From: Eledone cirrhosa
Lineage: Eukaryota
Direction: 5' to 3'
Assembly: GCA_964016885.1 (NCBI GenBank)
Contig: OZ024743.1
Span: 336,474,001-336,538,000, forward strand
Length of the DNA stretch: 64,000 bases
The notes beneath the pieces were generated by a model. It was not told where the DNA came from. It saw nothing but the letters and a program-made list of their open reading frames with translations, and did not search any database. A program made the position numbers and the translations under genes. Positions 6,513 through 44,674 of the stretch are shown in pieces; position 1 is the stretch's first letter; each line of letters opens with the position of its first letter.

Positions 6513-6529
6513 TATATATATATATATAT

Positions 6530-7608: not shown

Positions 7609-7639
<31 letters not shown>

Positions 7640-8137: not shown

Positions 8138-8171
8138 ACGACGTTTCGGGCATAAGCCCTTCCTCAGGTGA
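8138..8171 (-). ncRNA. Minimal hammerhead ribozyme (PLE A)
   Basis: cac CTGAGGA a gggc-ttat-gccc GAAAC GTC gt. Confidence 0.8.
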
Positions 8172-12432: not shown

Positions 12433-13896
12433 GATGGGCGTTGGGTGAAAGCAGGTGGAGGGATGAGAGGGCAGGGGTGTGAAGCGGGGTGGAGTGAACG
12501 AAGTGGTGAGTGCGAAGGATAGGCAGAGACGGGGAAGGGAAAATGAAACAGAAAAACGTAGGGAGTGGGGAGTAAACACAGGAAAATTAAAGACAAAAAA
12601 TCATAAAGGTAAAAACACAGGCGATCGTGAACAAAAAATCATAAAGGTAAAAACACAGGCAACCGTGAACAAAAAATCATAGAAATACAATTGTAAGAAC
12701 ACAGGCAAAGAATCTTATACGGAAAAAAAATGTACGGTAACAAAATCAAACAGAGGTAATGCGTGGAAGGAAAGACCAAGTGTGGGAAGGTGTGTAAAGT
12801 TCGAAGAAAGGTCACGGTATATGTGTGTATATATATATGTATATATGTGGGTATAGGTGTGTATATGTGGATATAGATATGTATGGATATGTGTGTATAT
12901 GATTATGGGCATGTAAATGTGTATTTAGGTTTGCATCTATTTGTGCGTATGTATATTTTTGGTCGGATATCAATATAACTGTACCTCTCTATATATAGTG
13001 TGGATATAAGCACTTTGTAATCTATGAAATTTATGTGTTTTAACTATGCCAACATGTATTTATCTGATTTTGATTAATTATGCATAAACATAATAGATAG
13101 TATTTTAGAGCGTATCATATGCTGTATTATACTAAGTGCAATTTACCACACCGTACTATATTGTGTTGGTTAAGTTGTATATTATCGCATTACTGTATTT
13201 CATTATCTTATTATAAATTTCCTCTTTTAATATACTATCTTTCCTAGCCATAATCTTAATTTATATTCACCTAAAAACTCAATACAACACTAATCACCAT
13301 TTATTTTGACATTCTTTTAAACTTCACTATACCAGATACATTCAACTATCAGTTTGACAATCCCTTTCCTCCTAATAGATTTTATGCCAATTCTACTATT
13401 AACACCATTCAACCATTCCTATCAAAGGGTCATGACCTTAACTAAAATGTATTACTTTTCATCTTAATACCATATGAAAAAAACAATGTGATTCGTTAGT
13501 TCTTCAACAACCTCCAAATAAGGACATGATACTAACATACTACTAATTCTGAATAAAATTATTATTGAATAAAATTATTATTGCTTTTGAAAACAGCTGG
13601 TGATATGCATGTAATTAAATATTCGCTTTATCTGATATTTTGTAACTAACCTTACATAGATCAATAACGGAGTATAGCTACAATGTATTATCATCATCTA
13701 GAAGCGATCGTAAAGCAGTGAAGTATATCTCTAATGACTTGATTTTTTATTTCATTGTTTTAACTTATATCATGACTCTGTTTTCCTTTTGATGTTTCAT
13801 TGTTTCTCGAGATTCATCTTAACCTACAACATTTTCACCATATGGATTACATCGAGTTCTTCATGCAGAATAGACCCCAAAACTTACTGTGGATAC

Positions 13897-14217: not shown

Positions 14218-14392
14218 CAATGATATTAAATAAATGGAAACTATATTTATAAAACCATATTTATTCTATTATATATTTTTCAAGGGTACCGAAACTTTGG
14301 TACGCTCTCATCAGTTAAAATACAAAGTTTGTTTTATAAATATTGACATAACCAGAAAAAAATACCTTAACGGTTCAAGTTTTTCCTGGATA

Positions 14393-14394
<2 letters not shown>
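14218..14394 (-). mobile_element. 3' fragment of the YRDD-type PLE family 27719 with an HHR-like motif (14242-14323)
   Basis: Homologous to 27719-27895; CTGATGA gagcgtacc..ggtaccctt GAAA. Confidence 0.7.
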
Positions 14395-15752: not shown

Positions 15753-15806
<54 letters not shown>

Positions 15807-15810
<4 letters not shown>

Positions 15811-16230
15811 ATTAAATAAATGGAAACTATATTTATAAAACCATATCTATTTCATTATATATATTTCAGGGATATCATATTAACAATATGTTATGCCTTC
15901 CTCAGACAAAATACAATATAGACAGTTTTATAGATAAATAGATTTGACATACCGATTTGACATACTTTTTCAAATACAAGTCGATGTTGAACGGTATGTC
16001 AAATCTATTTATCTATAAAACTGTCTATATTGTATTTTGTCTGAGGAAGGCATAACATATTGTTAATATGATATCCCTGAAATATATATAATGAAATAGA
16101 TATGGTTTTATAAATATAGTTTCCATTTATTTAATATCGTAAATATACTCCAAATACTTGTTGAGTGCTTTTATATCAGTTATAAATATTTACTAGTTGT
16201 AACCCAACAATTTAAATATAATTTTCCATG
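15807..16230. mobile_element. Fold-back pair of 27719-family 3' ends (about 145-bp inverted arms), each with an HHR-like motif
   Basis: 15807-15954 is the reverse complement of 15992-16138; CTGAGGA aggcataacatat..atatgatatccct GAAA. Confidence 0.75.
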
Positions 16231-20749: not shown

Positions 20750-22566
20750 GTTTTGCGAGGTTTTTGATATAAAATCGTGTGTCGAAACAAATATTGTTAT
20801 ACTTGGGGAGGGTCATATTTGTGTAATAATATTGCCAGAATTAATAACAGAACACACTGTTTGGTTGGTTTTCGCTTCTGTGTCTTTTATATCGGTTAAT
20901 TTAATTTATTCGGTCCTCAATGTTACCAGTGACTGACCAACGGTCAAAAATACAGATACAATGTAGACACAAACACATATATAGTCTAACAAAGTTCTTT
21001 CGTTGCACATCTGCAACATCGTCAGTGGTGCTATTATGTTTCCTCCCGTTGCATTGTATGCTTACGCCATCTTTATTTAGTCTGTTTATTTATTTATTTA
21101 TTTATTTAATTTTTGTCTTCTCTGCGCATGCGTTTGCGTGTGTGTATAGTGTTTTGTTTGATGTGTTCTTGTTTGGGTGACTGTATAAAAACTCAGCAAT
21201 GTCCAGTAGTGCTAAGTTTAATATTCTGATCGCAGACTTGGTACGAGTGATGAAGAACGTGTCCCGCATGTGCGACCCAACAGAAATGGAAAGACACATC
21301 CAACACTTCATCAACTGCATGCAGTTCTCTGGCTACAACCAAAGAGACACAATCAGAGTATATGAAGGAGCCACAGAAAAGTATAAGACCCTCATAGAAC
21401 TGGACATGAAATGAATTTGCCCATTATACAGGAGCAAATCATGGAATAGCTTAGATAGGACTAGACATAAGATAGGGAAAGCCACCTCATGGTACGACAA
21501 CCAGAGATACCAGAGTCTCATGTTTGTAGACGCTACCCCTGGAGGGAAATTAGCTAACCAGTGTAGAAAGGCCCTGAGAAGGACCCACTTAAAGAAAAAG
21601 GTGGTAGAAAAGCCAGAAACCACCATAAAATCCCTGATCAGCAAAACCTACCCTTTTAAGAAAACCCACTGTACTAATAGGAAATGTATCATATGTAAAG
21701 TAAACCCCCTGATAAACTGTAAAACTAGAAACGTTATCTATAGCATAAGATGTACAGAGGGTACTTGCAGAAACATGACAACAACATACATAGGCGAGAC
21801 AGCTCGTAGCATAGGTGAAAGGATAGACCAACACTGGGGGAACTAAAAGGACGAAAAAACGGTTCAGTACTATACGAACATGCCAGACAACAACACGACG
21901 GTAACATAGACAACATAGAAATTAGAATAATATCTAAACAGAGAAATAACCCAGCAGATAGGCAAATCAGAGAGGCCAGCGAAATAGAACTTAGAAGGCC
22001 AAGGCTAAACTGAAAAAATGAATGGAATAACAACAACACCCAAACAAACAACACTGACCTTAGAGAAGTATAAGTAAATGAATAAATAAATAAATAAATA
22101 AAAACATACACCAGCACAATAACAACAAACACATATAAACACACACTAGTAAACTAAGATAGAATACAATAACCAATACACAGTCACCCAAACACGAACA
22201 CATATCAAACAAAACACTATAGACACACGCAAACGCATGCGCAGAGAAGACAAAAAAATAAACAAATAAATAAACAGACTAGATAAAGATGGCGTAAGCA
22301 TACAATACAACGGGAGGAAATATAATAGCACCACTGACGATGTGGCAGATGTGCAACGAAAGAACTTTGTTAGAGTATATATATGTGTTTGTGTCTATGT
22401 TGTATTTGTATTTTTGACCGTTGGTCAGTCACTGGTAACATTGAGGACCGAATAAATTAAATTAACCGATATAAAAGACACAGAAGCGAAAACCAACCAA
22501 ACAGTGAGTGTGTTCTGTTATTAATTCTGGCAATATTATTACACAAATATGACCCTCCCCAAGTAT

Positions 22567-22806: not shown

Positions 22807-25800
22807 GAACTTTCCACACACCTTCCCACAACTTGTTTTTCCTTTCTTTGCATTACCTTTGATTGATTTATTTACTGTACTTGTTTATTTCTGTCTATAA
22901 TTTTTTGTCAATGATTGCCTGTGTTTTTACGATTATGATTTTTTGTCTATGATTTTCCTGTGCATACTCTCCTCTCCTTACGTTATTTCTCTTTGATTTT
23001 CCCTCCGCCGTCTCTGCCTATCATTCGCTCTCACCCCTTCATTCCACCCCCACCACCCCCGCTTCACACACCCTCCTTCTCATCCCTCCCCCTGCTTTCA
23101 CTCCATGCCCACCATGCCCAGCCTGAGATCCTTTCTCCACCAACTCCACACTAGCCTCAAACGTTTCCTCACCCCCCTGCTCTCACCCTGCTATCTCCCC
23201 TCGGCCCTTCAACTCACCTACCTTCTCTTCGCCAAAACCCGGCACTCCAGCCACATCCATTTCCTCAGCCACTGCCTCCACCTCCACCTTATCCCCCTCG
23301 GCTTCCGTCTGCACTCCCCCCCCCCGCTTCCCCCTCCACCCAACGTATCCTCACCCGATCCTCGCGCCTCCTAATGTGCAACTCCATCCGCGCCTCCCGC
23401 TCCACCATCCGCAAACTTGACTACCAACTGACCCCCCCCCTCCTCCGCCTAAACTCCGCCTGCCACCCCCCCCCCTCGCCCACGCCATCCTCATCTTCAT
23501 CCAAAACCTCAACCACGACGTCTTCTCCTTCCTCACCTCCACCAAAGACGGTAAGCTACACTCACTCCTCCCAACCACCCCTATCCAACACCACCCGCCC
23601 ATCCATATGAGCCCCCCACACCCACCCCACCCATCCCCACCACTCTCCAACCCTCCCCCAACCCACAACCCTACCCAATCTCCACCCTCCACCTCACCCC
23701 TCACCACACCCTCCCTTCCTCCCTCACACACCCAAACCCCACCATTTGTTGTCACCATACCCCCTGACCTCCCCCTCTCCGCACCTGAGCGCTCACTCCT
23801 TAGTAGAGGCCTTGGCTTCATACCCCACACCCCGCACAAAGACGAGTTCCGCACCCGAACGGAAGTCGAGCGATTCGTGCGACGCACGAAGCTACAGGTA
23901 CATTTCGGTCAAACGCCACCGGCTCCGAACGCCCCAGACCCGTTTCTCGACCTGGGCCGACGACCATCTTCTTGGACGCCGGCCCCAGGGCAATTTAGCA
24001 CCCTGGACGCGTTCGTCGATGCCAGCCGTAGCGCCGTAAATCGCCTTCGAGCGCCCCCCTCCCCCCACACATATCCCCCACTAACACCACTAACACACCC
24101 CTCCTTTTCACCGCCCACCCCACAACTAACAATGCTAACACCTCCACCCCACACCCGACCACCCTTCCCCAACTAACATACTAACATCCCTCCCTTCTTC
24201 TTCCCCCCTCCCCTTATCAAACGCACACACCCACCGTTACATATATACGGAATAACATCTCACGGAATAACATATCACGGGGCGAACTCCTCGCTCTCCG
24301 CTCCCTCCGTAGCCGAGATAACATCGTCATCAAACCGGCGGACAAAAGAGGCGCCGTGGTGGTGTGGCGCGCGGACCTCTACACGGCCTAAGCCCTCAGG
24401 CAGCTCCGTAACCCCCTCTTCTACCGCCCTCTACCCTCCGAACCCCCACCCCTCTACCAACAAGTTTCTTCTACCATCCAACACCTTGTCTCCTCCTCCC
24501 CACCGCTTCCCACCTCATCGTCCGCACCCCCCCCCGCACCCCCACCATCTACTTCCTCCCCAATCTCCACAAACCAGACAACCTCGGCCGCCCCATCGTC
24601 TCCGCTTGCAACTGCCCCACCGAACTCATCTCCGCTTTTCTTGACTCCATCCTCGCCCCCCTTGTCACCACCCTCCACTCCCACATCTCCGACACCAACC
24701 ACGCCCTGCACCTTTTCGACTCCTTCACCTACCCACCCGGCCCACAGCCCTTCCTCTTCACCCTAGATATCAAGTCCCTCTATACCGTCATCCCCCACGC
24801 CGACGGCCTACGTGCCCTCAAGCACTACCTCGACCTTCGCCCCAACCCCATCCGCTCCACCCCCACCCTCCTTCGCCTCGCCGAGCTGGTCCTCACCCTT
24901 AACTATTTCTCCTTCTCGGGTGAGTTTTACCAACAGGTCATGGGGGTAGCCATGGGTACAAGAATGGGCTCAAACTATGCCAACCTTTTTGTTGGCCATG
25001 TTGAGGCCCAAATCTTTGCCCAGTACACCGGCCCCACGCCCGAACTGTACGGTCGTTACATCGACGACTGTATCGGAGCCACGACCCTCACCCGAGAACA
25101 GCTCGACTCCTTTCTCTCCTTCTTCTGTTCCTTCCACCCCTCCCTCCACTTCACCACCTCTATCTCCACCATCCACGTCAACTTCTTAGACATCTCCGTC
25201 GCCTTCGAACCCTCCCACCACTCCCTCGTCACCTCCTCTTTCTTCAAACCCACCGACTCCCACTCCTACCTCGACTTCACCTCTTCCCACCCTACACACA
25301 CTAAACACTCTATTCCCTACTCCCAACTCCTCAGCATCCGCCGCCTCTGTAGCCGAGATGCTGATTTTGAGTCCCAGGCCCTTTCCCTAGTCAGCCATTT
25401 CATCCGCAAACGTTAACCCCCTCTCTCGTCCACACCGCTCTCACCCGCGGCCGTGCTGTCCACCGCTCCACCACCCTCACCCCACGGCATTGCACACCCA
25501 CCCACCGTATACCCTTCCCCATCACCTACCACGCCTCCACCATCCTCGGCTTCTTCCGACGCCTCCAGTCCGACCCCTCCACCTCCCACATCTTCCCAGC
25601 CCCACCACTCCTCTCCTTCAAACGTGCACGCAATCTCCGCACCCTCCTCGTCCACAGCTACCTACCCCCCCCCGATTCCCTTCCCTGTTCCAGGCCCCGT
25701 TGCAACACCTGTCCTCACATCACCAACACCACCACCTTCCAGGGTCCCAACGACCACTCTCTCTCTGTCCGGCATGCCTTCCGCTGCACCTCCTCCAAAC

Positions 25801-27660
25801 TAGTCTACGGACTTCGCTGCACGGAGTGCAGCTCAACCTACGTCGGACAGACTGGACGTCGCCTGGCGGACCGGTTTACCGAACACCTCCGAGATATTCG
25901 TCTTGGTGGTAGTTCCCCCATCGCCCGCCACTTTGGTGCCCCTGGACATTCCGCACACCACCTCACAGTCTGTGGCCTACTCCAATGCCACGGAACAAGC
26001 GCCACTCTCCTCAGGGTCGAACAACGAACCATCTTCACCCTACAGACCCACACTTCCCCCGGCCTGAACTCCCCAACCTTATTCCTTTAGCCTTCGACCG
26101 CCCCCTCCCCCCACACTTATCCCCACTAACACCACTAACACACCCCTCCTTTTCACCGCCCACCCCACAACTAACAATACGAACACCTCCACCCCACACC
26201 CGACCACCCTTCCCCAACTAACATACTAACATCCCTCCCTTCTTCTCTCCCCCCTTATCAAGCGCACACACACACCGGTACATATATACACGCGCTCACA
26301 CTAAACACACACCCTACTACCACTACTAACCCTCACCCCCACACACCCACCCCACCACCCCGAAACTAACATCACTAACACCCCCTACCCCACGCACACG
26401 AACACACACACCCACTTACACCACCCACTCTACACGCAACTAACATCACTAACACCCCCAAACCCTACGCACACGAACACACACACACACTTACACCACC
26501 CACTCTACACACCCTACCACCACTGACCCCCACTCACACCTGCATTCAACCCTTTCCCCACCACAAGTATACTAACACCCACTAACACCCCCTTCACCAC
26601 ACACACACACTCATCCAAACACGCACACACACACCAGTACACTACACTCCCTCCACCGGCCCCCACACCCTTCTTTCCCCGCTCCACCCACACCCTTTCT
26701 CACATACACACACATCCCACTAACACCTCTACTAATGCACACAACCCCTCCTCACTCCAACTTTCACACCTACCATCCTCTCCCCTGTCCACCGCACCTC
26801 CGCATACACTGACACACCGACTTTCTTCACTTACCATTCTACCCGACTGCTGCTATGCCCTTATCTCTGACCACCTCCCCGCGCACACAGACACACAACC
26901 CTCCTCCTGCCTTGACCCTCTGACCACTTCCTATTGCGCGCGCACCTCACATCTCCCCTCTTCCAACCAACCCAACCACGGATTACACTTATTGAACATC
27001 GATCCCTAGAATCCACCACATCCCAAGGATATTACCCAGTATTCCACCACATCCTCTACAGAACTACCTTAAGGACTCACCCACTGACATACACTAAAAA
27101 AAGAATTTTTCCCACACGCCACCTACATCCACAACACGCATAAACACACACACACACGTGCGTACCACCACATATTTACACACTCAGCCTCCGGAATCCT
27201 CTCCCCCACCCCTCACACCCTTCCCCATCCACACACGCACACACACACCGATCTACACCCCACCCCACACACACCTCTTCCTGAACATGCAACCCGTTCT
27301 TCCCCAAACTCTTACTTTCACATACACACATACACACACACGTACACCTACACACACCCGCCACCACCCCTACACGCCCCACATCCTTCCACCACCTATT
27401 TTACTTCATGTTTATTTTTATTTTTATTATGCTTTTATATTTAATTTCATTTGTACCGTTTCTTCTCACCCCCTTTTTTTCTATATGTCTCTCCACCACT
27501 CCCCTACACACCCTTAGAACTCTCTTCCCACACACTTTTCACTTGAAGAAGGGCTTATGCCCGAAACGTCGTTCCCCACCACCCCACCCCACTCACAAGA
27601 GCGTGAAACTAATAAACGTTTGTTCGTACTGCCTCTCTGTTTTGTTCCCGTTCAATTTTT

Positions 27661-27664
<4 letters not shown>
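22807..27664 (+). mobile_element. Near full-length PLE family A (Neptune-like), second copy
   Basis: Homologous to 8049-12815; HHR with TTGAAGA core at 27540-27573; ends in (TA)n. Confidence 0.92.
23114..26129 (+). pseudogene. PLE RT-GIY-YIG polyprotein, frameshifted and interrupted
   Basis: DIKSLYTVIPH, GVAMGTRMGSNYAN, YGRYIDD, LVYGLRCTECSSTYVGQTGRRLADRFTEH. Confidence 0.9.
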
Positions 27665-27718
<54 letters not shown>

Positions 27719-27724
<6 letters not shown>

Positions 27725-29086
27725 ATATTAAATAAATGGAAACTATATTTATAAAACCATATTTATTTTATTATATATATTTCAAGGGTACCAAGACATT
27801 GGTACGCTTTCATCAGATAAAATACAAATTTTGTTTTATAAATAGAGATATACCCATGAAAATCATACCTTAACGGTTGGATATTCACTGGATAGTGGAA
27901 ATATATTAGGGATTTTTCAAACTTATGTGTGAATATGCAAATGAATATGTAAATAATTGAAAAGCAACCGTTTATTTGAACGGCTATGGAGAGAGAGAAG
28001 AGATAAGAGGAGAAGGATAAAATAGTGCGAGAGAGAGCGAGAAGAAAGAAACAAGAGAAGATGAATAAAATCTCATATAACGTTAACCTGAGGGAAATAT
28101 ACTCTAAGTATATATCTTAATAGTACGTGTATTTACGATTATTAGTTGTTTAAAATTTGTTTATATTATATTTTTCTTCTGTTATAAGTAGATAAATAAA
28201 TAAATACATAAATAGATAAATAAATAAATAAATAAATAAATAGATAAATAGATAGGTATATCATGTTATAGATAATTGTTCTAATGAGTTATTAGGGATA
28301 TTGGTTTTGTATTTAATGTAAATAAATATTAATTAAATTAAATTAAATTAACTGAGTTAATAAGAATATTTATATTTATATGATTTAAAATGGGAAGATA
28401 CGGAAAAAACTCCGGTTTAATTTATTTATTCGTTAGTGTGAGACTATTTAAACAAAATAAGTAGAGATGTTGAAAGATACATTTAGCCAGAATCAGTTAG
28501 TGATTATAAATCTATTGGAAAATATTGAAAAAATATTGATAAAGTATTGAAAAAATATTGAAAAAGTATTGAAAAATATTGAAAAAATTTGAGAGAATTT
28601 TTTTTTTTTAAATAATTTATAAGCGATAAGTAATTTTTAAAGAAATAAAAATTAAAGAAATAAAAATTAAAGAAATAAAAATAAAGAAATACAAATTATT
28701 AAAATTATAATTAAAATTTAAAAAAAAGATTAAAATTATATACGTATATATTTTATGAAACTTTAAGAAGTGAAATTATAGCAAATGTTATAGATATTAT
28801 GATTTAGAGATATCAATATATTAAAACCAAGTAGATGAGATTGTTATGGAAATAAGTAGAAATATTATAAGTATAATTATAAGTTCTATATAGTTCTGAA
28901 TGTTGAATTTTAGCGATGTCTACAAGTTTGTCTAAATAAATTCGTTCTTAGATTAATAGAGTTTTTACATTTAAGTATGTAAAAAATGTCCTCACTACAC
29001 AATTTGCAGAATCTAGATAAAGCTGTGTTTCGGTACGCGGGTGCTTTTGAAACTGTTTCCCAAGCTAATGAATAGTCCATATTCTT
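27719..29086 (-). mobile_element. 3' part of a YRDD-type PLE (GIY-YIG C-terminus 28910-29086, AT-rich UTR, HHR-like motif 27744-27825)
   Basis: YSLAWETVSKAPAY..CKLCSEDIFYIL..CRHR matches the C-termini at 6952, 39816 and 53507. Confidence 0.8.
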
Positions 29087-29578
29087 GCAAATATTAGGTA
29101 TTAGGATTGTTGTTCTGAAATAGCGATGAATACATAAATGTATGTATAGTATATTTGGCAATATACTGTATGTTTAATTAAAAATATTTAGAAGACCATA
29201 CGCTATCGGTTTTAAAGTAGTGACTATGTCACTTACTTCTTTTCGGCGAAAGAAGGGAGAGAAGCTAACAGTCTGTTTGGCGATCATCAGAGCCACGCAC
29301 TACCCTGCTTTCGCCCGAATTATAGAAGCTGGATTCTTATAGAATTCCAGTAATAATCAGGAGCTGATTATACAGAGCGATTGCCGGTCCAGCAAATATT
29401 AGGTATTAGGATTGTTGTTCTGAAATAGCGATGAATACATGAATGTATGTATTGTATATTTGGCAATATACCGTATGTTTAATTAAAAACATTTAGAAGA
29501 CCATATCAGTTTTAAAGTAGTGATTATGTGACTTACTTCTTTTCAGTGAAAGAAGGGAGAGAAGCTAACAGTCTGTTA
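29087..29578 (-). mobile_element. ORF-less 305-nt-period unit (about 1.6 copies) with collapsed HHR at 29264-29293
   Basis: Direct repeat 29087/29392; gct CTGATGA tcgc CAAAC agact GTT agc. Confidence 0.65.
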
Positions 29579-29704
29579 CATTATAATTAATTTATATTTC
29601 TTTATTTTCGTAATAAAAAAATGTTTTAGTGTGTTTTTTACTTTAACACTTTTTCTGGGAATACTATGAGTCCTATAACCTAACAATTTCTTCAAAAGCA
29701 CCGA

Positions 29705-29875
29705 AGGCCAGCAATTATCCCAGTGTATTACTGTTACTTTATTTTATCGACCGCGTAAGGATGAAAGGCAAAGTTAACCTCGCCGAGATTTGAACTCAGA
29801 ATGGAAAGGGCCGTAACTCTATGCGTCAAAGCATGGCGTCCGACCCTCTACCGATACTGCCAATCCACCGCCCTA
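29705..29875 (-). mobile_element. tRNA-derived SINE (OR-like)
   Basis: Same family as 7791-7979. Confidence 0.85.
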
Positions 29876-30145
29876 CTATATTTATATATAATATGTATCA
29901 TTTGATATTATATATACTATGGTATCATCTCTTCCCCCAGCCCTCGGCCCCTTGGGCTTCAATGTACCCTAGACCTTCTCACCCCCCCCCCCCCCCCCGG
30001 TCGGGATGGTACCACCCACTTTGAGAGCATCTGAGCTAATGAGCTAAACGATTGAAATATATAACTTACATCCTTTATCACCTGTACATGTCCAATTAGC
30101 ACGGATTCTCGTAAGCTCAGCTTCCTGGATACAGGCTGGAATTGA

Positions 30146-30232
<87 letters not shown>

Positions 30233-30492
30233 TACACGCGCACACACATAGTGAAAGCCTTCAAAATACTTATAAATAAACATACAGTATATTATTATAT
30301 ATATGTTAGGTTATATTGGTGTTTATCAATATATGTTCTGATAAAGATTATAGAAACTCAATGCTAATCAGTTTCCTTGGTCATTAGTACTCCAAAAGGC
30401 AGAATGATTTTTCAATCTCTGTAGACTACGTTATGGACCCTTGTGGCACAATCTACATTGCTCAAAACCAGTTTAGACGTGTAACATGATAT

Positions 30493-30656
30493 TACTCAAC
30501 GAATGTTTCAATGTAGAACAGACGGCCGTACATCAATATATAACTGGGCGTATATTTATTTAATATTTATGTAATAAACATTTATTTAATATAACATTTA
30601 ATATAGTTATTTATTGTATTGTAATTAGCCTGCTGCTCTACATATCTTCAGGAGCA
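30493..30656 (-). ncRNA. Hammerhead ribozyme with very long stem II; partial inverted copy at 31398-31490
   Basis: tgctc CTGAAGA t atgtagagcag ... ctgttctacat t GAAAC attc GTT gagta. Confidence 0.7.
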
Positions 30657-30804
30657 TGAATGGTGTTACAAGCATCCAAATACAAACATACAAAAAGTGA
30701 CACCATGATACAGATTAGACTCATATGACAAAAAACAGCATGTGAAGCGTTATTAGATTTCTCTTTTCACAAGCTTCTTTTGCATGATTTAGCTATTCGT
30801 TATC

Positions 30805-31210
30805 ATTGTTTCTACTTTTGGCACAAAGCCAGCAATTATCCCAGTGTATTACTCGTACTTTATTTTATCGACCCCGTAAGGATGAAAGGCAAAGTTAACC
30901 TCGGCGGAATTTGAACTCAGATCATAAAGGGCCGTAACTCTTTGCTGCAAAACATGGCGTCCGACCTTCTATCGATACTGCCAATCCTCCGCCCTGTATG
31001 ATTTCTACTATAGGCACAAGGCTTGTAATTTGGGCGGAGAGGAAAGTCGATTAAATCAACCCCAGTACGTTACTGGTACTTTATTCTATCGACCCCGTAA
31101 GGATAAAAGGCAAAGTTAACTTCGGCGGGATTTGAACTCAGACGGTGAAGGGCCGTAACTCTATATTGCAAAGCATGGTGTCCGATTCTCTACCTATACT
31201 GCTAATCCAT
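30805..31210 (-). mobile_element. Two tandem OR-like SINEs
   Basis: Two B-box and core motifs (about 30805-30995 and 31000-31210). Confidence 0.85.
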
Positions 31211-31522
31211 AGGTATTTATTATATTATAACATTTTTGTAATTGAATTACTACACTAGAGTACTGCATTTTTATTTTACTGCTTCTAAACGTGCTTATAA
31301 TTACACCTTCTGTCGCTTTTAAATGTAATAACGCTCGACATACTGGTTTTATTTATTTTTATTTTTTTGCCATATGATGTCACTTTTGCATGTTTGAATT
31401 TGGATCGTTGCCACAACATTCATGCTCCTGAAGATATATAGAACAGCAGGCTAACATCCAGTATATATATTGAGGTACGGTCGACTCTCCTATATATATA
31501 TAGCTTGAACTTTAATCTGTTA

Positions 31523-31563
<41 letters not shown>

Positions 31564-31566
<3 letters not shown>

Positions 31567-32394
31567 CGGAGCAAGTAATCATCAAACGATCTTTTAAATA
31601 AATTAAAAAACGATTTAAATATTCACCTGTTCTATTGCCGTTACCGTTATACGCTTATAGTATGGAAATAGTTGTCTGAAGATCTAATTCTTTCCATTGG
31701 AAATTGTCTGGATTTCCAATTTTTTGATTAGTGAAACCGTCGGTAACGGCAATAGAACAGGTGAATATTTAAATCGTTTTTTAATTTATTTAAAAGATTG
31801 TTTGATGATTACTTGTTCCGCTCATTTTTATAGTTCTGGTATCTCAAATTAGTACCATCGAACCGCAACTATTATAAACACCATGCATATTTCTGCAGGT
31901 ACTTAGTGCCTGTCGGAATATCCATACCCTTTTATAATTTTTCTCCGATATGTAGAGAACAAAACGTTGTATCGCGCTGCTATTTCTAGCGGCATGATCA
32001 ACAAGTTTATAATAACCCGCTTTTGCTCATGGCCTATTTTTGTGTGAAGTCACTTTAACGGCTTGACCGTATGCAACGGTCGGGAAGCGAAATATTTACT
32101 TACTATGAGGCTTTATACCCTTATAGTGTGGAAACAGCTGTCTGAAGATTTAATTCTTTACATTGGAAATACTCTGGATTTCCAATCTTTTGATTAGTGA
32201 AACCGTCGGTAACGGCAATAGAACAGGTGAATATTTAAATCGTTTTTTAATTTATGTAAAAGATTGTTTGATGATTACTTGATCCACTCATTTTTATAGT
32301 TGTGGTATCTCAAATTAGTACCATCGAACCACAACTATTATAAACACCATGCATATTTCTGCAGGTACTTAGTGCCTGTCGGAATATCCATAAC

Positions 32395-32399
<5 letters not shown>
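31564..32399 (+). mobile_element. ORF-less 466-nt-period unit with two intact HHRs (31671-31750, 32137-32216) and a 5' inversion (31564-31646)
   Basis: gctgt CTGAAGA ... GAAA ccg t cgG TA acggc twice, 466 nt apart; flanked by (TA)n. Confidence 0.85.
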
Positions 32400-32443
<44 letters not shown>

Positions 32444-32657
32444 AGAATATTTTCGAAACAGCGAGCGGGTTTGAAATTATTATAAATGTAAGCTATCGCC
32501 GTATTTTGACTAAAGAAATTAAAGAAATTATTTAGCCTGATAGTGGTGTTAAGAAACCCCGGAGAAATGGAAAAAGATGAGTATTGACGTACATCGTTTC
32601 TTTTGCCTATTTATATATATATATATAAATATATATATATAGATATAGATATGGAAG

Positions 32658-33832
32658 AGAAACTAAAGAACGCTTACATACTCAAACACTCTTTATTCAC
32701 TAACAATGTTTCATCCTCACCTTTAGGCAGGAATCACCAGAGCTCAACAAATACCGTGTTGAGTATAAGCTCCACAATAACTGAGTCACTAGAATAATCA
32801 GAAAAATTGGAGATAGCTAACAAAGAGGTTCATACTGGGGTTACTAAGCATCACTGCAAAATACCAAGGTACAATTGGATTTAACAAGATGAAGACACAG
32901 TAGGTGGCACTCAAAAATGTAGGATGTAAAATCAAAAAGTGTGAAAGCATTCAAAAGTACATAATAAATACATAAAAATGCATAAAAATACATAAGAAAT
33001 ACATAAAAAAATACATAAAAAATACATAAACAATACATAAAGAAATACAGGCAAATGTTAAAACATAATATAAATTATATTAAACTAATAAAAAATATAA
33101 AAATAAAGATAAAAAATACTAATAGAGATAATATAATAAAATGAAATGAAGAAAATTAAAACAAAATAAAATAAAATAAAATAAAGTAAAATAATTAAAT
33201 AAAAAATATACTAAAAATTAATTAAAATACAATAAAGTAATATAAAAAGTATAATAAAATAATAATAAATGATTATAAAATAATAAAATAATATAATAAT
33301 AAGATAAAATTAAATTAAAAAGGATTAAAAATATTTAATAATTGAGAAAAAGTTATATGTTATGATCCCTTAAAGAAAATAAGTTATTACAAGCGCAGTT
33401 CCTAGCAACACAAGCGAGTAGGATGTCAGTAGTTTATATACAGGCGTGAAGAGATATTTTAGTACATCACAAAGGACCACAGTAATTCGAATGACCATCA
33501 TACTATACATACACAAGGTATATCAGTAGGTACCCGAACTAGGTAGCCAATTGGTGTTCACAAGTATATAGAAAGGTATCACAAAGGCATAGGCCTCACT
33601 CAAGTAAATATGGTTAATATATGGTATTGCTGAGTGAAACAAGTAAATACATTCAAGGCATGAATAGAAGCCATGCATAAGCAGGTTTAGCTTAGTGTGC
33701 GAAAGAATTTAAGCAGTCTCGATATATTAGTTATAAAAGTTGTTATAAAGTAATTGGCAAAGTTATTATTCATGCATAATTAGCAATACAAGCAGGACTA
33801 ATTGTTTACATATCTAATATGTTATATATTGG
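32658..33832 (-). mobile_element. PLE-like 3' UTR with variant HHR (32699-32743); inverted copy at 37450-38795
   Basis: gct CTGGTGA t tcct..agga t GAAAC att GTT agt then AATAAA; about 1.2 kb reverse-complement similarity. Confidence 0.7.
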
Positions 33833-33875
33833 ATAATTGCTGGCCTTGTGCCTAAAGTAGAAACAATTATATATA

Positions 33876-34668
33876 TTCAACTACCATCCTAGGATTTTAC
33901 CAACCATTCTACCACATCATCTTACGGAATCACCTTTACGACTCACCCACACACACACTCCCCAAAAAATTTGTTTTCCCACACGCCACCTACACCCACA
34001 ACACGCTTAAACACCACACACACGCACACGTGCGTCCCACGACATATTTACACATTCAGCCTCCGGATTCCTCTCCCTCCACCCCTCTATCCACACACGC
34101 ACACACACTCCGACCTACACCCCACCCCACACACACCTCTTCCTGAACATGCAACCCCCTTCTTCCCCCAACCCTTGCTTTCACACACACACAAACACAC
34201 ACACACACACGTACACCTACACACACACACCACCTTCAGCCCTCCCCGCTCGGACACCCCGTCTCCCTCTCCCCACTCCACCCGCCACCACCCCTACACG
34301 CCCCACAACCTTCCACCACCTGTTTTACCCCAGTTTAATTTTATTTTGATCATGCTTTTATTTTTATTTTTATTTTTATTTTTATTTTTATTTTTATTTT
34401 TATTTTTATTTTTATTTTTATTTTTATTTTTATTTTTATTTTTATTTTTATTTTCATTTCCACCGTTTCCTCCCACGCCCCTTTTTGCTATATGTCTCTC
34501 CACCACTCCCCTACACACCCTTTGAACTCTCTTCCCACACACTTTTCATCTGAAGAAGGGCTTATGCCCGAAACGTCGTTCCCCACCACCACCCCACTCT
34601 CAAGAGCGTGAAATTAATAAACATTCGTTGTACTGCCTCTCTGTTTTGTTCCTGTTAAAATTTTCCAT
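33876..34668 (+). mobile_element. 3' UTR fragment of PLE family A; HHR at 34547-34580; expanded (TTTTTA)n
   Basis: Homologous to 27010-27664; CTGAAGA a gggc-ttat-gccc GAAAC GTC. Confidence 0.85.
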
Positions 34669-34687
34669 TATATATATATATATATAT

Positions 34688-34745
<58 letters not shown>

Positions 34746-34749
<4 letters not shown>

Positions 34750-34938
34750 TTAATATAGATGAGATTCTACAGGACTAGAACTGTTTAATTCATTAGAAAT
34801 CATCAGGAATCCTGATGATTTCTAATGAATGAAACAGTTCTAGTCCTGTAGAATCTCATCTATATTAAAACTTTTATACTCTGCTATGTATTGAGTACCT
34901 TACTTACTGTGGTTACCTCCGATTCAACCCGGAATAAC

Positions 34939-34941
<3 letters not shown>
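34746..34941. mobile_element. Fold-back copy of the 19233 HHR family (about 125-bp palindrome)
   Basis: ...catcagga a tcctgatg... centre near 34809; plus-strand HHR core intact. Confidence 0.8.
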
Positions 34942-34989
<48 letters not shown>

Positions 34990-34996
34990 TATATAT

Positions 34997-37363
34997 ACTC
35001 CCGGGTTAAATATACGTAGTAGTATATTAAGCGTAACAATTACATCATAATCCAAGAAAATGCATGCTGGATTTACTACAATAAACAACCACTCCATGCA
35101 GAAAATATTTTAGTGTGGGGAGGTTGGAGGTGTTGTGGATTTGTTTAGTGAGGTGTGATATGTTGTTAAATATTGTAGTGTATCGGGGTGTGGTGTAGTG
35201 TATGGTGTAATATTTGTGATATAGTGTAGTGTAGTGTGCGGTGATGAAGGATGGTGTGGAGTGGTGTGGTGTATAGAGGTGTGGAGTGGTGTGGTGTATA
35301 GGGGTGTGGTGTGATATTTGTAGTTTATTGCGGTGTAGTGATGTATTGAGTGGTGAACTGTGATGTGTCTTATCGAGTTATTTAGTGGTGTACTATGGTA
35401 TGACATATGCGATGTCGTGTACTGTAGTGTAAGATAGTTTTATTTCGTTAGGGCCTGGAAAGAGATGATGTGCTGTTGTATACTTGGATACTGTATAGTG
35501 GGGTGTGGTTTGGTGTACTATGCCATGGTGCTTGGCATATTGGTTTAGTGTAGTGTAATGTAGTACAGTATCCTGTGGTGTAGTTAATAGGGTCGTGGGA
35601 CGTTTTGCGGTGTACTTGATTTGATTTGTTGTGGAGTGTATAGGCGTACTATAGTGTGTGTGTGTGTGGGGGGGGGACCCTGGTGTGGTTGAATCGAATG
35701 TGTGCAATTTGGTGGGATGTAGTGTAGTATAGCTAGGTGTTGAGTAGTATGAATAGGTGTCCAGTAGATTAGTGGGGTGGAGTGTAATGTAGTGTTATGA
35801 TGTGATGTGCTGTAATGTGATGATTAAAATAAGTTGTCGGACATTGTTGTGCAGTGGGGCAGTTTCAGCTGCTATACTCACTGGATTAAGGTGTGGAATA
35901 GTATAGTCTGCTGTGTTGAGTTTTTGAGTATTATGGAGTGGTGTGAGAAGTATGTGGTTGTGTTGTGTGGTAGTATAGTGTGGTATGTGGTGATGTGGCG
36001 GTGTGGGGTGTGGTGAGATTTAGTGTGTAGTAATGTAGTGCAGCGTGGTGAAGGGTGGTGTATTTTAGTGTGATGTGGTGTGTTGTAGTGTAGGGTGGTG
36101 TAAGGGAATAAGGCATGGTTTGCTGAGGTGTGGTGAGGTGTAGTATTATGTAGTGTTTGTAATTTTGTGAGGATTGGGTAGGGCGGTGGTGTGTGTTTTT
36201 AGTGTTGTAGTGTGGTGTACTGTAGTTTGGTGTGGTGTTGTGTGGTGTAACGCGGTCTAATTTTTCCCGATATTGAAGTGCGTAGTTTGAGGTTGGATAT
36301 GGTGTACTGGTCTTGGGGTAGTGAAGTTGGATGGGGTATACTGTGGTATAATGCTTTTGGGAGTGGTAGGGTATAATGGTGTGTGGTGTGTTTTCTTGTG
36401 GTGTGGCGTTGTATATAGTGGTTGAATCGGTGGAGTGGTATGGCGTGGTGTGGTGTCGCGTTGTTTGGTTGTCCGAGGGGTTTGTGTGGTGTGATGTGGT
36501 GGAGTATTGCGGTGTCTATGGGTGTAGGGGTGATATCCTGTAGTTTAGTGTACGGGTGTATTGTAATGTAGTTTGGCGGGGTGTGGTGTGGTTAGATCTA
36601 CTGGGGTATAGTGGGGTATGGGGTGGAGTAATGTGGTGGGATGTGGGTTAGTGCGGTGTTTGGTGGGGTAGGGTCTGGGGGTGCGATGGGGTGAGGTTAC
36701 TGAACTTATAATTTTCTCTTTATATTCCTTTCTCTTTAATTTGGTCTTAGTCTGAATTAATTACCTATTAGATGAATACTCATTCACCTCATGAGTGCAA
36801 CGTCATTTCTTTAACAACTAAAACGTCATCAATTAATGTACACAGAGACCACATGAGTTCAACGTTATTTTGTAACAATTAAGACGTCATCAATTGATGC
36901 TCACAGAGTTTAGTGGCGCGAAATAAAGTAAAATGTTCTAAGCTAGTATTAATTTAATTTAATTTTAGTGGTATTTAGACTGTATTTGTATTTTTATCTT
37001 TATTTTTGTATCTATTCCATTTCATCTCTGATTAGATATATGAATTTGACCATATTTAGCAAAAATGCTAAGGTATTTAGCGTATTTAACAACTTGTACA
37101 CGAGTGTTGATTTCCTTTTGTTTTGTTTAGACTGGTTGGCTGTGCTGATCGTATTTGCTGCGACCTGAAGTTCTATTCACAAGTTGGTGACAGAATGGTG
37201 TGTGCAGAATTGGCTTGAACTGATTCTTGAACAATTTTTTTATGTTGACCTGTGATTTTCTGCATGGAGTGGTTGTTTATTGTAGTAAATCCAGCATGCA
37301 TTTTCTTGGATTATGATGTAATTGTTACGCTTAATATACTACTACGTATATTTAACCCGGGAG
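34997..37363. repeat. Composite repeat with 110-bp inverted termini and a 1.6-kb G/T-rich low-complexity tract (35110-36700)
   Basis: 34997-35107 is the reverse complement of about 37254-37363; degenerate GTGTG/GTGTA pentamers. Confidence 0.6.
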
Positions 37364-37449
37364 CATATATATATATGCATATATATATATATATATATGT
37401 GTGTATATATATATATATATATGTATGTATATATATATATATATATAAT

Positions 37450-38795
37450 ATATTAGATATGTAAACAATTAGTCCTGCTTGTATTGCTAATTATGCATGA
37501 ATAATAACTTTGCCAATTACTTTATAACAACTTTTATAACAACTAATATATTGAGACTGCTTAAATTCTATCGCACACTAACCTAAACCTGCTTATGCAT
37601 GGCTTCTTTTTATGCCTTGAATGTATTTACTTGTTTCACTCAGCAATACCATATATTAACCATATGTACTTGAGTGAGACCCATGCCTTTGTGATACCTT
37701 TCCATATACTTGTGAACAATTGGCTACCTAGTTCGGGTACCTACTGATATACCTTGTGTATGTATAGTATGATGGTCATTCGAATTACTGTGGTCTTTTG
37801 TGATGTACTAAAAGATCTCTTCACGCCTGTATAAAAACAACTGACATCTGTCTCGCTTGTGTTGCTAGGAACTACGCTTGTAATAACTTGCTTTCTCTAA
37901 GGGCTCATAACTTATAACTTTTTCTCAATTATTAAATATTTTTAATTCTTTTTAATTTAATTTTATCTTATTATTATATTATTTTATTATTTTATTACCA
38001 TTTATTATTATTTTATTGGCAGTATCGGTAGAGGGTCGGACGCCATGCTTTCCAGCATAGTTACGTCCCTTTACGATCTGAGTTCAAATCCCGCTGAGGT
38101 TGACTTTGCCTTTCATCCTTACGGGGTCGATAAAATAAAGTACCAGTAATGCACTGGGTAATTGCTGGCCTTGTGCCTAAAGTAGAAACAATTATTATTT
38201 TATTATACTTTTTATATTACTTTATTGTATTTTAATTTATTTTAGTATATTTTTTATTTAATTATTTTACTTTATTTTATTTTATTTTATTTTGTTTTAT
38301 TTTTCTTCATTTCATTTTATTATATTATCTCTATTAGTATTTTTTATCTTTATTTTTATATTTTTTATTACTTTAATATAATTTATATTATGTTTTAACA
38401 TTTGCCTGTATTTCTTTATGTATTTTTATGTATTTTTTATGTATTTCTTATGTATTTTATGCATTTTTATGTATTTATTATGTACATTTTAATGCTTTCA
38501 CACTTTTTGATTTTACATTCTACATTTTTGAGTGCCACCTACTGTGTCTTCATTTTGTTAAATCCAATTGTACCTTGGTATTTTGCAGTGATGCTTAGTA
38601 ACCCCAGCATGAACCTCTTTGTTAGCTATCTCCAATCCCCCTATTATTTTTTCTGATTGTTCGTGTGACTAAATTATTGTGGAGCGTATACTCAACACGG
38701 TATTCGTTGAGCTCTGGTGATTCCTGCCTAAAGGTGAGGATTAAACATTGTTAGTGAATAAAGAGTGTTTGAGTATGTAACCGTTCTTTGATTTC
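37450..38795 (+). mobile_element. Inverted partner of 32658-33832, interrupted by a SINE at 38017-38195
   Basis: Reverse-complement similarity; degenerate HHR at 38711-38755. Confidence 0.7.
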
Positions 38796-39084
38796 TTTTG
38801 CATATAACGGCTCTGTCTCTGTGCATTGAGCTAACACAATACTGCAATTATACTACGGTGAGTAGGTGTTTATTCACATATGCTGCGAACTTTACGTAAA
38901 TAAATAAATATATGAAAATTTGCTCCGAAAGAATTGCATGTGTCCGAAGGAACCTGCAGCCGTAGAATCAGCCAGATCCATACAATGATCATGTCTCGAG
39001 CTACCTGCCGGCGAAACAATTGTAACACGCAGTAAACTCAATCCAGATGCATCACTGATTTTTCGTTTTTTATACTATATATAT

Positions 39085-41520
39085 ATAGTATAAAAGAGAA
39101 AACACAGGTAAGCATTAAGAGAAGGATTTTATCCAGGTATTTACGACCGTTTCATTGGTAAGTGCAACCTTATATTGCTATACTGCAAATAGCAGCCACT
39201 CAATTATAATTGTTGTTCACGTCCAAATTTTCAAAATAGTGAGTAAGTAACTCTTGAAAGAGTTCTTAATATATAGAGAAACTCATTTTTTTTGGAATTG
39301 TATTTACTAGTATAGAGAGAGAGGAAGAGGAATTAGAAAGTGATGGGACAAACAGAATAGTATATATAGAGAGAGGAAGGGGGAGAAGTGTTAGGAAGTA
39401 GAGAGACAAACTGAGATGGAGGGAGGGGTAGAGGTGGAAGGATTCCTTGAGCAGTTTTGATACGTAGACTTCATGTCGTCGGTTGTAGTGAGTTAAAGAG
39501 AATTAAATTGATCATAGTGGGAGGGATGGATATAGAGAGAGAGAGGGGAGAGAGATATAAAGAGATAAATATATATATAAAAAATAAAGATAAAAATAAT
39601 AATGATAAAAATAAAAGTAAAGGAGGGGGAGAAAGAAGAAAAGAAAAGATAGCCAAAAAGGGGAGGGAAGAAAGGAAGAAAACGAAGAAATAGAAGAGGA
39701 ATGAAGGTGAAGGGAGGGATATAGGTATTGGTTTTCGTGGGTAATTAAAGGGGTTAGATACAATAAGAGGGTATAATCTCTAAGTATATGCAGTTTGTCA
39801 GTTGGTAGTAAGAGGTTAAGGGTTCGCTTTGCACTTGTAGTGCGAACACTTTTCTTTGAGTCTATGGTTATAATAAATTGATCTTTCGATTTTATTGTTG
39901 AGTAACTTATTCTTCGAACTCAAAATGTGGAACAGCTCAAGGTCACATAATCGACAGCTTCTCATACCACTCCGATATGGGGGCGCGTTCGATAATTTTT
40001 TCCACTTCAGGGTGTATTGATGGTTACTTTCCCTCAGTTGCCAGGTCTTGCTAGCAAGGGTAGTTACATAACGATGCTGGGAATGTTTCATTGCGTAACG
40101 GTGTGTATACCAACGGGCTTTAAATGTATTCCCAGTCGCTCCGATGTAATTCTGGTTGTCTGATTCCACTGTGCATTGGTAAACCAGGTTAGACTGCATA
40201 CATTCATTATGTAATGGACAGGTTTCAGGTAGGTGGCAGTCATGGGCAACTTTGGCATTATTGGTGGGCTGCGATGCCTGTACAAGTGTGTTACGTTTTG
40301 TTTGCCTATTAGTGGGTGGTTGTGTATTAGATATTCTGTTGTGTTCAATGGTGATTGTATTGTTATTGTTATAAATTTGTGTTCTGGTGTTGTTATGTAT
40401 CTTTTTAGCGTTAAGCATCTTAATGTGTGCCTCTATATTTGGTGCCGTGGAGTAAGATAGTCTAATAGATTTAGTGTTAAGGATTTTGCTGTATCTATAT
40501 GAATCTGGAAAGTGCCTATTTATTATTCTAAAGAAGGTAGAGAGTAGGTTAGTACTAATAGAGGTTAAATATGGGGTTATACCAAATATATTTTCTACTG
40601 CGTGACTTGTTTGATTTCGATGTTGTATTTCTATTTACCGTATAATTTGTAGTTCTATGCTTAAATGCGCGTGTGCGTGTGTTTCTGGAGTTTGTGTTAT
40701 GCGTGTTCGTGTGCGCTTCACAGAGGCTTTCATCTATATATTCTACTCTATCTAAGTGGCCTGTCTTGTCTAATGCGGTATTGTAGTATTCTGCATGTTC
40801 CTCGAAGATTTGTCGGTTAGCCGAGAGGCGGGAGATCCTAAGGGATATGCTGCGTGGAATGGATTTAATTATGGATAATGGGTGGTTCGAGTTACAGTTG
40901 ATGTATGCTAAGTTTTCATTAATCTTGTGAAAAGGTCTTATAAGTCCCGTATTTAGGTTAAGCATCGCGTCTAGAAAGTTAACTGTTTTAGTGCTATACT
41001 CATACGTTATGCTAAGGCCTAGTTTCCCGAGAGTCTTTCTAATAGAAAGATTCTGTAAGAATATTAGAAAGACTCTCTACTTCCTAACACTTCTCCCCCT
41101 TCCTTTCTCTTTATACTATTCCGATTGTCCCATCACTTTCTAATTCCTCTTCCTCTCTCTCTCTATACTAGTAAATACAATTCCAAATGAATGTTTTTCT
41201 CTATATATTAAGAACAATTTCAAGAGTAACTTACTCACTATTTTGAAAATTTGGACGTGAACAAAAATTATAATTGAGTGGCTGCTATTTGCAGTATAGC
41301 AATATAAGGTTGCACTTACCAATGAAACGGTCGTAAATACCTGGATAAAATCCTTCTCTTAATGCTTACCTGTGTTTTCTCTTTTATACTTTATACTCCA
41401 AGATTGAACGGAATTCTAACAAACTTGTGGAGTTAACCCTAACGGTACTTTGAAACCATCATGAAACTGGCTTTCTTAACCACGAACTGGATCACAATAA
41501 GCAATTTTCTGCTTCCCTAA
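39085..41520 (-). mobile_element. 5'-truncated YRDD-type PLE (RT thumb + GIY-YIG, 39816-41040) with inverted pLTR at 41070-41520
   Basis: IWYNPIF, CHLPETCPL, LVYQCTV..YIGATGNTFKARWYTH, CRLC; degenerate HHR (GAAAC ggtc GTA). Confidence 0.9.
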
Positions 41521-42707: not shown

Positions 42708-42827
42708 CGTTGTTGACATGTTTGGGGAGGTGGTTTAAGAGGTCCAGATCGTCTCTTACAAGGCCTGGTATGTGTTTGAGAATTGGTTTTAGTAGTATGT
42801 CTATAAAGTTGCTCAGTCTGTGTGTTT

Positions 42828-42913
<86 letters not shown>

Positions 42914-42914
42914 C

Positions 42915-42955
<41 letters not shown>

Positions 42956-42960
<5 letters not shown>

Positions 42961-44674
42961 CACACAGACTGAGCAGCTTTATAGACATACTACTAAAACC
43001 AATTCTCAAACACATACCAAGCCTTGTAAGGGACGATCTGGACCTCTTAAACCACCTCCCCAAACATGTCAACAGCGACACTATTATTGTGTCTTTCGAT
43101 GTAGTAAATCTCTACACGACGATCCCTCACCAATACAGACTAGAAGCAATAGGATTCTGGCTAGAGAAATATCCCAATGAGATACCTGGCAGAATAGAAA
43201 AAAGCTTCATCACCGAGTGATTAATATTTATCTTACAGAACAACTTTTTTGATTTCGATGGCAGTACTTACAAGCAAATATCGGGGACTGCGATGGCTAC
43301 AAAAGCCGCTCCAACTTATGCCAACTTAGTCATGGCATACTTAGAAGTTCAGATATATGAACAGTCCAAATCAAAATACGGATTGAACTTCCACAAATAT
43401 TTATCAGAGAATTGGAAACGCTACTTGGATGATTGTCTCATTCTTTGGTCCCACACACTCGACCAACTGAAGGATTTCAAAAACTTAATAAACGGCATCA
43501 ATAACCACATCCAATTCACAATGGAATACAGCCAAGATCAACTGCCATTTCTGGACATGTTAATCTTAAAAAAAGACACAAATATTGAAACTGACATACA
43601 CTACAAACCAACAGATTCCAAACAATACCTGCTATTCACCTCCAACCATCCAAAGCACATGAAGACGAACATTCCTTTTAACCTAGCAAGAAGAATTTGC
43701 ACAATTGTCTCCAATTATGAAACGCGAAATAAAAACTTCAAGAATTAAAGGAAATTCTACTCGAAAGAGAGTACCCACTATTACTAATAAATGATGGAAT
43801 AGAAAGGGCTAAAGCAATAGGCATTGATGAATTACGAAAACAGAAACAAATTCAAGGTACGTCCAATATTCTATCATATATCTCAAACACAACCCAAGAA
43901 ATGCGGAAGCTTACAACACTATTCACAAGAACATCCCACTACTAAAACAAAACCTAAGAATGAAAAAAGCCCTTGAAACACACAAAATAAGCAAAAGCAA
44001 AAGACAACCGAAATCACTGAAAACATTACTCACCAATGCCAAATTACCTAGCAGAAACCCACAACCAAGTGTCAAAAAATGTGGTCACTCTAATTGTGGA
44101 ACCTGCACTCACCTCATTGAAGGCAACACGTATACATTTAAATCAGGACAAAATTTTACTGTAAAAAATCATTTCACTTGCTCATCAAAAAATCTAATTT
44201 ATGCCATTAAATGTAAAGGATGCAATGAAGATTATATAGGACAAACTAAACTCACACTCAGAAACAGAATGACAGTTCTCTCGCCAACAATTACGAGATC
44301 CAACCACGAGACAGATACCACTAAGCACACATCTAGACATATGCGCAAGTAATAAGAAACCCAAATTCCAAGTATTCCCATTTTACCTTTGCGCTAACAA
44401 TACAACAGAACAAATACGAATAAATAAGGAAAATATGTTTATTCAAAAATATAGACCAGCATTAAATATGGTTTAATATACATTATGTCAACACCATAAC
44501 ATGCTAACCATCCAAACAGACACATACACATATAACACCTTCTACTTTAGAAAATAAAAACCCGAACTAAATAAACCTTAACATACGTTTGCACTGACAA
44601 TACAACAGAACAAATACGAATAAGTAAGGAAAATATGTTCATTCAAAAATATTCCTACTAAAGAAATCATTTTC

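Follow-up and report, generated by a model that had tools for sequence, protein, structure and literature searches.

The window analysed here, a 64-kb stretch of AT-rich animal DNA, holds many microsatellites, one abundant SINE (which we take to resemble one known from octopus genomes) and many PLE pieces. Between 27664 and 29703, two elements of different kinds meet directly. Read along the minus strand, a flank is followed by a partial copy of part A of a repeat unit (A1, 29577-29392), part B of that unit (29391-29278), a second copy of part A (A2, 29277-29087) and then PLE sequence, which probably extends to a (TA)n tract. The features, in this order, are as follows.

29578..29703: outer 5' flank, single-copy, AT-rich, without (TA)n and without target-site duplication
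29392..29577, minus strand: A1, incomplete outer copy, part A of the unit (the final 11 nt of the hammerhead with the cleavage site after 29567, then a structured tail)
29278..29391, minus strand: part B (two hairpins, 5' arm of the long helix I, CUGAUGA half of the hammerhead core at 29290-29284)
29238..29319, minus strand: type I hammerhead of the unit, broken here (10 nt gone near 29278; would-be cleavage after 29267)
29087..29277, minus strand: A2, inner copy of part A, abutting the PLE piece
28907..29086, minus strand: C-terminal 58 codons, with the stop, of the GIY-YIG endonuclease of a Hydra-type PLE
27817..28906, minus strand: probable 3' UTR of the PLE, 1,090 nt, the whole of which we infer to be PLE sequence
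27720..27824, minus strand: a further hammerhead, not related to the first (PLE type with a long helix II, core at 27816), and a short tail, the probable PLE 3' end
27664..27719: (TA)28, probable insertion target

From 29577 to 29087 on the minus strand, the repeat amounts to 491 nt or 1.6 units. The two copies of part A (29087-29277 and 29392-29577) are 92.7% identical over 191 columns (E 6e-78), with nine substitutions in 186 aligned positions and one 5-nt indel, owing to which they are offset by 305 nt at one end and by 300 nt at the other. The inner copy stops 180 nt past the cleavage site and abuts the PLE piece without spacer and on the same strand, with no (TA)n at the unit/PLE junction (29087), while the outer end of the unit, at 29577, falls inside the hammerhead, 11 nt ahead of the cleavage site. 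The initial annotation, which had placed 1.6 copies of a 305-nt unit on the minus strand, fused at about 29087 to a 5'-truncated GIY-YIG with no (TA)n in between and with the distal end inside the hammerhead, was thus accurate on all of these points, as confirmed by the repeat itself and by the endonuclease match described below.

Read contigs were aligned at 80% likeness, and the summed depths given throughout are no copy numbers. Mapping covered four of nine public runs (X1, X2, X5 and X7; X3, X4, X6, X8 and X9 were left out). X2, which is the same sample as X1, agrees with it, and X5 (organism B) gave only 33 aligned contigs. The outer flank is AT-rich and behaves as single-copy DNA (read depth 7.57). 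In a five-repeat test there is no (TA)n within 600 nt of the outer 5' end, and the outer flank and the sequence after the unit have not one 6-mer in common, that is, no target-site duplication.

An X1 contig is identical to 29549-29700 (0 differences) and spans the outer end, with 30 letters inside the unit; X1 may itself be the source sample. This contig, together with the private and paired variants of the two copies (see below), which argue for a real locus, makes it highly improbable that we are dealing with an assembly artefact at a repeat boundary, a reading to which the lack of any record bridging 29087 among the 24 listed of 14,027 lends some weight (two of them, records 2 and 9, stop at 29077 and 29082). 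No loose ends at 29087 are found among the 24 rows listed of 974.

The stretch 29580-29608 was considered as an inverted PLE UTR piece linking both partners, and was dropped, since scores as good came from 8 of 500 shuffles; the outer flank also has matches of about equal quality at two other AT-rich places of the window. On the plus strand, 29579-29646 resembles AT-rich low-complexity DNA at 33195-33255 and 38202-38261 (73-75% over 67 nt), a likeness that is probably compositional and possibly that of an old inverted UTR piece.

A retrozyme-like repeat family

The summed depth in X1 reaches 150,000-370,000 in the core regions of both parts, against 7.57 on the flank. Contigs of the family connect A with B and, across the hammerhead, B with A, and the unit is therefore a true tandem or circularly permuted repeat. 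It is non-coding (stop codons in all three minus frames, GC 37%), none of its frames matches a profile of 38 long Hydra-type proteins, and it is strongly folded (z -4.83, with 0 of 100 shuffles as good; z -4.2 when folded as a circle). Exact DNA patterns of the unit gave no hits in genome_contigs and viral_contigs, and 12 metagenome loci matching such patterns, over only 19-26 nt each, were rejected as chance.

Gaps of 10-15 letters are present in all seven records that span the inner hammerhead among the 24 listed of 14,027, and the 10-nt loss is therefore not the state of the family. The letters missing from the locus copy would form the 3' strand of helix II and the G in GAAA. By eye, the consensus of the loose ends at 29278 (45 and 49 contigs, 227 reads) contains a 4-bp helix II (ACGC/GCGT), a 6-nt loop and GAAA, and the window copy has a palindromic helix III, a UU cleavage site after 29267 and a long helix I. 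Judged from these sequences, the family carries a canonical type I hammerhead, as described in PMC4209133. Of the '305-nt hammerhead unit' that had been proposed, the spacing stands; the inner hammerhead itself is broken by the missing 10 nt, and the family unit measures about 315 nt, compared with 305 nt at the locus. Rfam gives no match at gathering level in the whole window, and four weak Rfam matches within 27600-30400 were discarded as microsatellite and chance. There are at least 18 hammerhead-core sites of several families in the window, most of them followed by (TA)n within 80-280 nt, and Rfam finds none of these.

By its sequence, the unit corresponds to what PMC7229834 calls a non-LTR retrozyme. 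Its length lies within the range of about 170-400 nt, and its GC content below the 45%, that mark the head-to-tail repeats of this class. It has in common with the metazoan non-LTR retrozymes (PMC7229834; bioRxiv 10.64898/2026.07.22.740005) (i) a tandem or permuted unit of ~300 nt with low GC (37%), no ORF and a strong fold (z -4.8), (ii) a type I hammerhead with a 4-bp helix II, an extended helix I and a palindromic helix III and (iii) great abundance and a location beside PLEs. Unlike these elements, it has a broken ribozyme in the locus copy. Two consecutive complete hammerheads (the 'active' copy of Li et al.) are not found at the locus, where one is truncated and the other is short of 10 nt. 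The locus copy is dead, but the family need not be.

Many copies of the family run into (TA)n some 135 nt past the cleavage site (seen as a loose end at 29435, in 31 X1 contigs and 255 X7 reads), an arrangement that would match the geometry of PLE 3' ends, the PLE RT being known to start inside the RNA, downstream of the hammerhead (PMC11167929). Even without a chimera, a very abundant retrozyme family in which the distance from hammerhead to terminal (TA)n resembles that of PLEs argues for PLE-type mobilisation.

A variant unit appears in loose ends at 29243 (X7) and 29332 (X1 and X5, hence organisms A and B), with a GUC cleavage triplet and with helix I arms that are altered yet complementary; we infer that these two loose ends lie on one molecule. 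Read ends of a RAD library at 29343 and at 29179/29484 fall at restriction sites, presumably those of EcoRI and MseI, and were set aside. The related sequence that had been noted at about 4060-4135 spans 4043-4131; these 88 nt resemble one part of the unit (66 nt at 82%) and are no free-standing copy. Diverged relatives of part A are found at 3963-4185 (minus strand) and 30249-30305 (plus strand), with 88 nt and 57 nt aligned, respectively. Both begin directly after a (CA/TG)n tract, and the one at 3963-4185 continues to (TA)n at 3962, which suggests further subfamilies keeping an AC-rich core, a candidate RT start signal.

The PLE partner

An HMM built from 100 endonuclease domains (relatives of the window's YRDD ORF) matches from 29086 (E 2e-10), that is, from the first codon past the junction of an open frame of 58 codons, and scores above 0 bits nowhere else among the frames of 28800-29700. 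A tblastn search with the YRDD ORF of the window also finds the endonuclease fragment (E 2e-6). The fragment keeps CxxC (CKLC) and CxH (CRH), around a conserved E and N, and the GIY-YIG half is absent. The last codons of the unit (HRYFRTT) were considered as an extension of the endonuclease and rejected, since the profile match begins at 29086. Close relatives of the 58-aa fragment were searched for and none was found (nor does Pfam give a match), because of which any microhomology at the junction is unreadable.

By its motifs, the fragment would fit with the Hydra clade of Craig et al. (PMC8557442). Among 38 long relatives of the window's YRDD ORF, CxCx4-6C is present in 29, DKT in 28, RW[KR] in 17 and YRDD in 36; these counts come from the relatives, as the CxCx5C linker, DKT, RWK and no-CCHH traits lie outside the truncated fragment. 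As in the members of that clade (PMC8557442), there are a C-terminal GIY-YIG with CxxC and CxH, a complex 5' joint and, if the downstream sequence belongs to the same element, a hammerhead and a (TA)n target (Hydra PLEs are reported in that paper to insert in (TA)n). What sets the locus apart is that only the last 58 codons are left and that the 5' partner is a foreign small RNA rather than the element's own tandem or inverted 3' end.

Downstream of the stop codon, the 1,090 nt of the candidate 3' UTR have more C than G (skew 0.47) and are free of TA runs longer than 6 nt, the UTRs of two other Hydra copies in the window having skews of 0.66 and 0.68. In the reads, the endonuclease and the first 160 nt of this UTR belong to one repeat family, and shorter copies of the 27720-27824 end lie at 14218-14394, 15799-15954 and 15992-16147 (the last two as an inverted pair). 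The PLE piece thus probably covers 29086-27720, through the UTR and its own hammerhead to (TA)28, the hammerhead at 27816 being linked to the endonuclease across 1.1 kb by composition and not by a second copy. This hammerhead has a long helix II, unlike that of the unit.

The summed X1 depth over the PLE piece is 2,300-11,200 and does not drop toward the junction in the endonuclease (7,195, 2,415 and 3,038 in the last three bins before it), which fits many longer copies or many composites. It could therefore be asked whether the joint is part of an amplified composite family, or an internally deleted PLE that has kept the unit as its pLTR, retrozymes being pLTR derivatives; indeed, Xenopus retrozymes match PLE pLTRs (bioRxiv 10.64898/2026.07.22.740005). 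We consider this unlikely, since a pLTR should recur downstream of the ORF, whereas the unit has no match in 27600-29086, the hammerhead that does lie there is a different one and, as mentioned above, the frames of the unit do not match the Hydra-type profile.

The initial annotation had pointed out that the missing upstream part of the PLE might lie beyond the unit, as expected if the unit were a later insertion. No such part was found: with the profile of 38 long Hydra-type relatives, there is no match above 5 bits on either strand of 29087-39837, and the rest of the PLE is therefore not beyond the unit.

How the two partners may have been joined

The two copies of part A probably go back to reverse transcription of a single template. 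Both carry, at three pairs of corresponding sites (29110/29415, 29113/29418 and 29129/29434), a letter that is absent in 97-99.6% of the family depth, and they should therefore come from a single template, a homogeneous array or a rare subfamily; differences private to one copy are seen at 29136, 29185, 29208 and 29453. Moreover, the 10-nt deletion ends and the outer copy starts on one and the same AAC at the foot of helix II (with an ambiguity of 2-3 nt). Since an RT moving 3'->5' meets the helix II hairpin at this point, a slip on the first pass and a stop on the second would be the simplest account, and an end-to-end jump on an RNA cut open within loop II is also compatible with it. As the copying went across both cleavage sites, the template must have been circular or else a multimer left uncleaved, and either explains the 1.6 copies equally well. 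The RT may, as claimed earlier, have gone round the small RNA, but an uncleaved multimer gives the same DNA and uncleaved RNA is what the PLE RT prefers, and mainly used, in vitro (PMC11167929).

The best single explanation for the locus, which we put forward tentatively, is a retrozyme-PLE chimera made in a single event of target-primed reverse transcription. The Hydra-clade PLE protein would (i) nick (TA)n at 27719 and (ii) copy a PLE RNA of ~1.37 kb (tail, hammerhead, 3' UTR and end of the endonuclease); its RT would then (iii) jump onto the retrozyme RNA, circular or multimeric and uncleaved, 180 nt downstream of the cleavage site, (iv) cross the ribozyme junction and slip over the helix II hairpin (10-nt loss, 2-nt AA microhomology) and (v) copy one further unit, recross the cleavage site and halt at the same hairpin. 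These copying steps are our reading of what is directly observed, namely the anatomy of the locus, the identity of both partners, the broken hammerhead and the shared variants.

In favour of one event, the partners are on the same strand, with no spacer, the truncation is exactly at the joint and there is no PLE beyond the unit. The single RT event with a switch, as first proposed, agrees with the same-strand fusion, with PLE homology starting at the junction and with the origin of both copies from one template, but the outer end, with neither (TA)n nor duplication, speaks against it. TA-free internal joints also occur in other Hydra copies of the window (at 41073, onto the inverted own 3' end, and where 6529-6818 lies inverted before 6886), which indicates that the Hydra machinery does jump templates. 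Against one event, the short hammerhead-tail insertions at 14314, 19254, 34812, 17065 and 17093 have (TA)n on both sides, whereas at the outer end here there is neither (TA)n nor duplication, and nothing encloses both partners. The lack of a listed record across 29087 also counts against it. Target-site duplications are, according to PMC8557442, often unreadable in microsatellite targets, which is why the missing one lowers the claim of a chimera without refuting it.

A deletion could account for the single site almost as well as a template switch. A longer retrozyme array and a longer PLE would have inserted separately in one (TA)n tract, to be fused by loss of the 3' part of the array, the tract and the 5' part of the PLE. 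Both families are dense (150,000-370,000 and 2,300-11,200, against 7.57 on the flank) and end in the same target, (TA)n, which makes such a fusion credible. In addition, A2 ends 43 nt beyond the usual (TA)n end, the outer end is also devoid of (TA)n, hinting at erosion, and the locus is several percent diverged, the 4.8% difference between A1 and A2 making it old enough for later deletions. We nevertheless judge this history to be possible rather than probable, because it requires an extra event and the right orientation, and it neither needs nor explains anything about the junction. For a single locus, the correct orientation arises by chance half the time, which also weakens the case for a chimera.

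The position of the 3' end of A2, 43 nt past the main end, can be read in yet another way, since it is near the 30-40-nt 'tail' spacing of two PLE RT start sites (PMC11167929) and may thus be a real initiation site. The retrozyme would then have inserted by itself at or near the 5' edge of a PLE copy that had been truncated before, duplicating little or none of the target. This seems to us more unlikely still, given that copies of the family mostly end in (TA)n, which the site here is not, that the insertion must land within a few bases of the truncation point (or need a deletion) and that no PLE sequence is left beyond the unit.

The template-switch chimera has its closest counterparts in the retrocopies WEIRD-MGL/Mg-SINE in Magnaporthe (PMC2104539) and U6-L1 in mammals (PMC4476161, PMC11838501). 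In these, an abundant non-coding RNA likewise forms the 5' part, with the 3' end of the RT donor downstream, joined directly and on one strand. There are three differences: (i) the RT partner is a LINE there and a PLE here, (ii) the 5' part here is more than one unit long and (iii) the enclosing target-site duplication that proves a single event in those systems is absent at our locus.

As mobilising partners of animal retrozymes, PLEs have been proposed on the basis of co-occurrence, shared hammerheads and pLTR homology (PMC7229834; bioRxiv 10.64898/2026.07.22.740005), and in the available portions of these reports the argument is made from co-occurrence and pLTR homology; the same portions contain no retrozyme fused to a non-homologous PLE 3' end, as found here. 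A literature search by title and start of abstract, in an incomplete collection, returned no report of such a fusion either. The retrozyme-PLE link was thus already proposed (PMC7229834), whereas fusion to a non-homologous PLE end was not met in the literature searched.

Chimeras of the U6-L1 type are footprints in the genome by which an RNA can be assigned to a particular RT. Several retrozyme-PLE chimeras would together provide such a footprint, point to the Hydra clade and define an RNA pair for an in vitro test. One locus is insufficient for that, but it defines a simple genome-wide test. It is suggestive of a chimera and does not amount to the 'direct evidence' that YRDD-type PLE RT uses such RNAs, as which it had been announced. 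More doubtful is the wider proposal that (i) in vivo, the Hydra-clade (YRDD) PLE RT leaves its own RNA for a non-homologous retrozyme RNA, of which it copies more than one round, (ii) chimeras recur here with a fixed order and name the mobilising partner of the retrozyme family and (iii) the paired skip and stop at helix II reflect an RT meeting a folded hammerhead on a circular template.

Other elements in the window

The longest Hydra-type copy, at 52850-55005 on the minus strand, has YRDD, an RT thumb and GIY-YIG (PF01541), with a hammerhead ~500 nt past the stop, the helix II region of which is ~90 nt long by eye, and then (TA)n. Another Hydra-type copy, at 39082-41395, has its 5' end joined to its own inverted 3' end (arms of 211 nt at 96%, 63 nt at 90% and 43 nt at 95%). 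At 5395-7330, an inverted RT piece (6818-6529) lies ahead of a Hydra endonuclease (6886-7323) and adjoins a long non-coding block, inverted or duplicated by eye, at ~5395-6500. A near-perfect inverted pair of a hammerhead-tail family (15799-16147; 156 nt, 99%) sits between two (TA)n tracts.

Two long, related, C-rich copies of YIDD-type PLEs, which we take to belong to the Penelope/Poseidon clade, occupy 9611-12600 (minus strand) and 22997-26221 (plus strand), with pieces of RT and GIY-YIG ORFs. ORF pieces of other PLE families are found at 42807-44352, 57815-60179, 21415-21846 and 47025-47648, and minimal hammerheads accompany some of the other-family pieces (2134, 21025, 22334, 41859, 46818 and 57678). 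Finally, several SINE copies are arranged in tandem at 61019-61780, with a spacing of ~226 nt.
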